This document shows, piece by piece, positions 35,740 to 35,790 of a stretch of DNA of 64,000 nt. Where the stretch lies: assembly GCA_965116795.1 (NCBI GenBank), contig OZ220716.1, forward strand, positions 651,362 to 715,361, given 5' to 3'. Within the stretch, counting starts at the first letter, position 1; each line of letters begins with the position of its first letter. The translations under genes and the position numbers were made by a program. The notes below the pieces were generated by a model that searched no databases, was not told where the DNA came from, and saw only the letters and a program-made list of their open reading frames with translations. The DNA is from Gammaproteobacteria bacterium. GTDB lineage: Bacteria > Pseudomonadota > Gammaproteobacteria > JAJFKG01.

Positions 35740-35790
35740 GCCCGTCATTCTGGAGAACCCATGGAATGGGTGAGTCCAGAATCCAGTCTT
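35740..35790. repeat. MITE-like repeat family A copy overlapping the 3' end of the M16 protease gene
   Basis: gcccgtcattctggagaacccatggaatgggtgagtccagaatccagtc. Its reverse complement encodes the last 14 aa (RLDSGLTHSMGSPE) and stop of the 35745-37151 CDS. Confidence 0.75.

Follow-up and report, generated by a model that had tools for sequence, protein, structure and literature searches.

A small hairpin repeat forms the C-terminal tail of an M16B peptidase in a gammaproteobacterial operon

The locus described here lies in a stretch of 64,000 nt (the window) from a gammaproteobacterium of about 41% G+C, whose GlyS finds its best matches at 73% and 62% identity, both in MAGs, and a Legionellales bacterium at 53%. 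Its central features are two adjacent genes on the reverse strand (Table 1), in both of which the Pfam domains Peptidase_M16 and Peptidase_M16_C were found. Because an HMLEH zinc-binding motif is present in the 468-residue protein and absent from its 444-residue partner, and both proteins are built of the two domains, the pair is assigned as an active/inactive M16B operon; the two domains, together with HxxEH in only one of two neighbouring subunits, are the features of the M16B heterodimeric zinc peptidases. The best solved relatives of the active subunit are 4nnz_A (E 1e-107) and 3amj_C (3e-94), the latter being the active subunit of a Sphingomonas heterodimer whose inactive subunit, 3amj_B, is in the same PDB entry. 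The operon is divergent from ftsY-ftsE-ftsX and is followed on its 3' side by a Cons_hypoth95 methyltransferase gene, an arrangement common to the relatives. The downstream M16 gene has its AAGGA Shine-Dalgarno sequence at 35720-35716.

Directly upstream of the M16 start codon, in the region between the divergent ftsY and M16 genes, there is also a repeat of about 130 nt (37174-37300) that is about 85% identical to a copy at 4067-4237, downstream of a ribonucleotide reductase gene. Compared with the 37174 copy, the one at 4067 has an additional insert of about 50 nt that contains a hairpin; a weaker partial copy is seen at 26905-26941.

Table 1. Features of the M16 locus, repeat copies of family A in the window and elements of similar architecture on other contigs (labelled L).
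Feature	Position	Strand	Remarks
M16B zinc peptidase active subunit, CDS, 468 aa	35745..37151	-	HMLEH motif, signal peptide, Pfam and PDB matches
M16B inactive subunit, CDS, downstream operon partner, 444 aa	34374..35708	-	Signal peptide, without HxxEH
Inter-cistron spacer, 36 nt	35709..35744	-	AAGGA Shine-Dalgarno and post-excision stops
Repeat-encoded part of the active-subunit CDS, codons R455-E468 and TGA stop (35747-35745)	35745..35789	-	Peptide RLDSGLTHSMGSPE
Family A copy, 50 nt	35742..35791	+	CCGTCATTCTGGAGAACCCATGGAATGGGTGAGTCCAGAATCCAGTCTTT; covariance model 81 bits
Family A copy	17280..17329	+	34 nt after Ham1/RdgB stop; 84% identical to 35742 copy
Family A copy, composite	17413..17518	-	Two extra internal hairpins
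Family A copy	55499..55549	-	22 nt after thyA stop
Family A copy, longer	57081..57150	+	Extra TCCTTGA/TCAAGGA hairpin
Family A copy, variant	9939..9986	.	GTCAT-type head GTCATTCTGGA at both ends; between hexapeptide-transferase gene and glyQ
Multi-copy GTCAT-stem-loop-stem-ATCCAG elements	L005 296-756, 3515, 7247-7700; L008; L019; L022 1846-1925; L025; L026		

The 3' end of the active-subunit gene is occupied by a short repeat, here called family A. An earlier note on this DNA had placed related intergenic copies at 9939, 17281, 17420, 55501 and 57082, and copies are found at all those positions. Counted within the 64-kb window only, the family comprises six copies of 47-106 nt, about 1 per 10 kb in this window. 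All of them except the 35742 copy, i.e. 5/6, lie outside ORFs with Pfam or NCBIfam support, and the intergenic ones usually follow a stop codon (of rdgB/Ham1, thyA or a histidine phosphatase gene) by 20-130 nt. The gapped pattern GTCATNCTNGAGAN{10,40}TCNAGNATCCAG gives 4 matches against 0.00 expected from 100 shuffles, and its 5' motif alone 6 against 0.44. When the three canonical copies (17280, 35742 and 55549) were used to build a covariance model, it gave them scores of 80-81 bits, against 30 bits for the 9939 variant and 18 bits for the 57081 copy. The 45-nt 3' module of the 17413-17518 copy is 96% complementary to 57109-57153, and its presence in both long copies suggests recent copying. 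Between rdgB and a gene for a sodium:neurotransmitter symporter, the 17280 and 17518 copies form a tail-to-tail inverted pair around an AT-rich spacer of 83 nt; both outer ends of this composite, which is REPIN- or MITE-like, carry GTCAT.

Concerning its structure, the 35742 copy has two stems, an outer one of 8 bp (ATTCTGGA/TCCAGAAT) and an inner one of 6 bp (ACCCAT/ATGGGT), together with a GTCAT head, an ATCCAGTC tail and a T-run. The same two-helix hairpin, with a small internal loop between the stems, is adopted by every canonical copy (-18 to -22 kcal/mol); in the orientation of the gene, the 35742 hairpin has -19.8 kcal/mol and z = -3.25. All 14 of the 14 pairs are paired in the three canonical copies and 4 of them show double compensatory changes, with outer stems that read TTCTGGA/TCCAGAA, TCCTTGA/TCAAGGA and TACTGGA/TCCAGTA, and inner stems that read ACCCAT/ATGGGT and GCCCGT/ACGGGC. 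As a control, the 3' partners were slid by 1-3 columns, and the pairing dropped to 19-45%.

The earlier note had called this element a MITE, which agrees with its small size, its non-coding nature and its multiple copies. Nevertheless, the definition does not hold on two features, since no direct repeats were found in the flanks of any of the six copies (17280, 35742 and 55549 aligned; 57081, 17518 and 9939 read) and the ends of the element are asymmetric. These read CCGTC... on one side and ...CCAGTCTTT on the other; the inverted repeat ATTCTGGA/TCCAGAAT is subterminal rather than truly terminal, and GTCAT occurs at both outer ends only in the 9939 variant and in the 17280/17518 pair. From these features the element seems better described as a REP-like hairpin repeat, having a short imperfect palindrome, an invariant non-palindromic GTCAT head (the canonical REP/REPIN head is GTAG) and a covarying stem. 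Among the window ORFs that were scanned for a RAYT gene or other mobilising enzyme none was found, the only transposase genes being of the IS66 family. The whole window gave no Rfam match at the gathering threshold and no tRNA genes, and the strings of the repeat sequence match, in the literature, only papers unrelated to bacterial repeats.

Further CCGTCA-headed hairpins are seen in the window at 22788, 33615 and 39130. The one at 33615-33663 has CCGTCAT...ATGACGG ends (-17.8 kcal/mol, z = -3.6) and is intergenic, downstream of an HTH-type ORF (33210-33545) and before an rsmD-like gene. A related GTCAT-hairpin-ATCCA element, CCGTCATCCCACGGCTTGACCGCGGGATCCAT, is located at 39124-39161, 11 nt after the ftsE stop, in an ftsE-ftsX spacer of 106 nt; in the relatives on contigs L002 and L034 ftsE and ftsX abut or overlap. 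It appears to be a second repeat that inserted where two operon genes adjoin closely.

The active-subunit ORF ends ...KRLDSGLTHSMGSPE-TGA (in longer views of the 468-residue protein, ...VPKQVNDATHDKTKRLDSGLTHSMGSPE followed by the stop, and ...RRTIAVLVPKQVNDATHDKTKRLDSGLTHSMGSPE-TGA), inside the 50-nt repeat, whose copy here is antisense to the operon. Two of the reverse frames of this copy are open throughout, while the third reads RLDSGLTHSMGSPE and ends at a TGA; this stop lies in ATGAC, complementary to the invariant GTCAT head, and it also closes the equivalent reverse frame of both other canonical copies. The ORF enters the element in the RLDSGLTHSMGSPE frame, hence repeat sequence makes up its final 14 codons and its stop. 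The end of the ORF thus coincides with the repeat as the earlier note had claimed, and the observation of a repeat-formed protease tail is confirmed.

In order to locate where homology of the protein ends, orthologues were searched among 5.8 billion proteins and the best 120 sequences were aligned with MAFFT. Query aside, the best match is 59% identical. The last conserved column is P442 (99% P in the 120-sequence alignment), beyond which occupancy and identity decay, which places the end of homology, both with the 119 orthologues and with solved structures, at about P442-D447 (PDB matches: 444-447), before the repeat peptide is reached. The sequences after P442 are unconserved; the orthologues have 1-25 residues there (median 14), and the query has the longest tail, of 26 residues. 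None of the 119 orthologues was found to share the C-terminal peptide, four 5-mers of which were looked for in them. With these 5-mers absent and the other five copies intergenic, the repeat is not derived from the gene, in agreement with the earlier note. A search with the five open frames of the repeat returned no candidates, but as it did not return protein P0001 either, this empty result carries no information.

Genomic context was available for three relatives: the M16 genes overlap by 20 nt in L001 and by 8 nt in L034/L035 and stand 1 nt apart in L002, and in all three the ribosome-binding site of the second gene is inside the Lys-rich end of the first. Here, in contrast to such abutting or overlapping genes, the distance is 36 nt, a difference explained by the repeat that lies at the junction. 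About 98 kb from relatives (L001, L002 and L031-L035; 53-62% protein identity) proved free of family A copies, so the family appears lineage-limited in the data searched.

An allele of the same gene with an empty site was sought and none was found in the searched data, the nearest orthologue being 59% identical; for this reason we infer that an insertion took place, as well as where its boundaries lie and which stop was native. The repeat was excised in silico with nine plausible boundary choices that remove 46-52 nt, and every one of these models restores an ORF, of 455-466 residues, which stops in the spacer at TAG 35736-35734 (...KTKSS) or TAA 35723-35721 (...LSVFC), or at an ATGA overlap with the second gene. 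The most natural boundaries are those of the 47-nt conserved core, or of the core plus TTT (50 nt), and both give ...KTKSS or ...KTSS, an end that puts the excised tail at about the orthologue median. Removal of 48 or 51 nt leads instead to ...LSVFC-TAA, and that of 46, 49 or 52 nt to the ATGA overlap. According to these models, 2-12 unconserved codons would have been displaced and the protein would have become longer by 2-13 residues. The claim that the native 3' end was replaced therefore stands in part: some native codons were probably displaced, but only these few, from a tail that is naturally variable. By eye, no second half-element was seen within the M16 coding sequence on the downstream side of the repeat's tail.

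Only one protein is more than 59% identical to the query, namely P0121 on contig L003, which carries the same insertion. Over 8,097 nt this contig differs from the window by 4 single-base indels and no mismatch, with a coverage of 1.8x, and on this sequence evidence we take L003 to be the same strain with read errors. It has an extra G upstream of the repeat (GGAC, GAC in the window), which yields a different tail of 22 residues, repeat-encoded as well, and its downstream M16 gene is split into two ORFs. Given the low coverage and the restriction of the differences to single-base indels, the extra G is most likely a sequencing error.

Taken together, these data make it very probable that a REP-like hairpin repeat landed in the last codons of the first M16B operon gene, where it supplies the tail and the stop, most likely with neutral effect. 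The process would have been as follows. A short non-coding hairpin repeat would have inserted into the last few codons of the active-subunit gene, antisense to the operon. Because the frame that the ORF enters stays open as far as the TGA contained in ATGAC, the head's complement, a ribosome would continue through the element, add RLDSGLTHSMGSPE and stop at this TGA. The stop codon used before, 2-12 codons beyond, would now be out of frame or downstream, and the second cistron with its AAGGA ribosome-binding site, originally abutting or overlapping the first, would have been moved to a distance of 36 nt. The newly acquired tail would project from the end of the folded domain, and since it lies beyond the fold, in a region that is variable in all the orthologues, the change is predicted to be neutral or nearly so. 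It should be noted that a hairpin of -20 kcal/mol between the cistrons could affect mRNA stability or translational coupling.

This last point leads to the alternative that the hairpin was co-opted as a regulatory element that sets the ratio of active to inactive subunit, either by shielding the upstream message from 3' exonucleases or by uncoupling translation, both routes being compatible with an origin by insertion. REP sequences act as intra-operon mRNA stem-loops of this kind in the malEFG operon of E. coli. Here the mRNA orientation gives a stable hairpin (-19.8 kcal/mol, z = -3.25) and compensatory changes preserve its stems; a junction that three relatives keep tight measures 36 nt in this genome, and a related hairpin is present in the widened ftsE-ftsX junction of the same window. 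However, stem conservation is equally expected if the hairpin serves the propagation of the element itself, the intergenic copies share the structure, and nothing sets the 35742 copy apart; we consider co-option unlikely.

Alternatively, the element might be a mobile intrinsic terminator like the pneumococcal SPRITE, tolerated in the operon only because it is antisense to it. A T-rich run follows all five asymmetric copies, and the copies at gene ends (17280, 55549 and 57081) are in the hairpin-then-T orientation, with the intra-operon copy reversed. Nevertheless, the T-run starts about 6 nt after the stem, against a criterion of 0-2 nt, no family A copy was called by the intrinsic-terminator scans, and six copies are too few to establish an orientation bias, which altogether renders this reading improbable.

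The extra G of L003 opens a different possibility, namely that the tail seen here is an assembly error and the true sequence has GGAC instead of GAC. The repeat would then be read in another frame with a TAG just beyond it as the stop, and the protein would end ...THGQNKKTGFWTHPFHGFSRMTGS, as the called protein P0121 does. The coverage of 1.8x, the indel-only pattern and the broken downstream gene speak for read errors in L003 and make such an error in the window very improbable; moreover, the tail is repeat-encoded in either case. Finally, the idea that the repeat family derives from the 3' end of the M16 gene, or resembles it by chance, is refuted by the 0 matches expected from shuffles, the five intergenic copies, the absence of the peptide from 119 orthologues and the hairpin covariation, as well as by elements of the same architecture in unrelated phyla, and has practically no probability left.

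The insertion of a REP-like repeat, which we thus prefer, has counterparts among known systems. REP/REPIN elements of E. coli and Pseudomonas are mobilised by RAYT transposases; they are imperfect palindromes of 20-50 nt that number in the hundreds, mostly extragenic and near gene ends. Family A resembles them in its short conserved non-palindromic head beside a covarying stem and in its occasional inverted doublets (here 17280/17518), and differs in that its head is GTCAT and not GTAG, in a second conserved motif, ATCCAGTC, at the other end and in that the window has no RAYT gene. In Coxiella burnetii, the QMITE1 element overlaps gene 3' ends by up to 50 bp (pntAA 42 bp, nagZ 50 bp), and in the Dugway strain the final 33 residues of EnhC come from a QMITE2 copy, directly after which lies the stop codon (PMC5896051). 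QMITE1 and QMITE2 are, like family A, small non-coding hairpin repeats of a gammaproteobacterium that lie mostly just 3' of genes, some overlapping the gene ends, and a likeness to REPs is reported for truncated copies of QMITE2 (Wachter et al. 2018, PMC5896051). They are longer than family A, full-length QMITE2 having about 190 bp, terminal inverted repeats of 24-29 bp and direct repeats, whereas the family A copies are without direct repeats; no similarity in sequence between the two was seen.

Rickettsia palindromic elements (RPE) are translated in frame within many proteins (PMC10969869), and they share with the 35742 copy a palindromic sequence, largely open frames and translation in host proteins without destroying the fold. 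Unlike it, they are of about 150 bp, insert internally and in frame, and have a conserved peptide, while family A provides only an extreme C-terminal tail and a stop. [quoted passage not shown] To the extent of that source it is similar to the present copy, as a small repeat within an unbroken operon, and dissimilar in its 235 bp, terminal inverted repeats and direct repeats. Repeat-derived C-termini are hence already documented, in the Coxiella QMITEs and the Rickettsia RPEs, and what is found here is a new repeat family doing a known thing. The tail is real and of an ordinary kind, and it probably does no harm. For annotation, the last 14 residues of the peptidase are repeat-derived and are not to be counted as conserved sequence of its family, and the locus is a further example of small repeats that remodel protein C-termini. 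It also indicates that the hairpin repeats of this genome invade even tightly coupled operon junctions, that between the M16 genes and probably that between ftsE and ftsX.

The architecture was also looked for in a wider range of sequences. A gapped-pattern scan of 185,579 species-representative genomes gave 19 single matches, none of them from the source or its relatives, and a pattern scan of JGI metagenomes gave 8 single matches. About half of the genome matches were set aside as a conserved 48-nt stretch in Clostridia, unrelated to family A. Elements composed of GTCAT, stem, loop, complementary stem and ATCCAG were found in bacteria of the candidate phyla radiation (Berkelbacteria, Daviesbacteria, Peribacteria), in an alphaproteobacterium and in two metagenome contigs. 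Such contigs hold several further copies, whose stems differ from copy to copy and yet stay complementary, and which often form tail-to-tail doublets (GTCAT...ATCCAG-spacer-CTGGAT...ATGAC).

Copies of the Neisseria element dRS3 presumably often read GTCATTCCC...GGGAATCCAG, with the same head and tail as family A. Exactly this form is presented by the alphaproteobacterial (L022) copy, GTCATTCCCGCGAAGGTGGAAATCCAG, and the outer stem of family A is ATTCTGGA...TCCAGAAT. The L022 copy resembles dRS3 as described, a 20-bp inverted repeat ATTCCC-N8-GGGAAT (PMC1797815). On the other hand, dRS3 copies flank RS elements in long arrays and are phage integration sites, and no arrays are seen here. Family A might conceivably, though we regard it as rather doubtful, be one branch of a widespread and apparently little-described REP-like class with an invariant GTCAT head, an ATCCAG tail and freely covarying stems, in which Neisseria dRS3 would possibly be included. 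If so, conservation of the single-stranded head across phyla would point to one shared recognition or mobilisation enzyme, and the M16 tail would be a by-product of the activity of that system inside operon junctions. The M16 locus alone gives no answer to what recognises the GTCAT...ATCCAG heads across phyla, a question that may merit a census.

Other repeats of the window deserve mention. At 22788-22828 there is a palindrome with a perfect 20-bp stem, CCGTCACCCCGCGA...TCGCGGGGTGACGG (-39 kcal/mol, z = -7.4), and a related copy lies 4.3 kb away at 27117-27140. Together with direct repeats of 43-58 nt (22633-22815 / 27060-27140), these palindromes bracket an IS66-family region with a transposase gene (23438-24973), TnpB_IS66 (24970-25332) and a DUF4143 ATPase gene. 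An ORF of 1146 residues at 29406-32846, with no NCBIfam match and a higher local G+C (0.465), contains two blocks of imperfect 24-nt tandem repeats (29985-30805 and 31584-31984) that amount to about 30 units.
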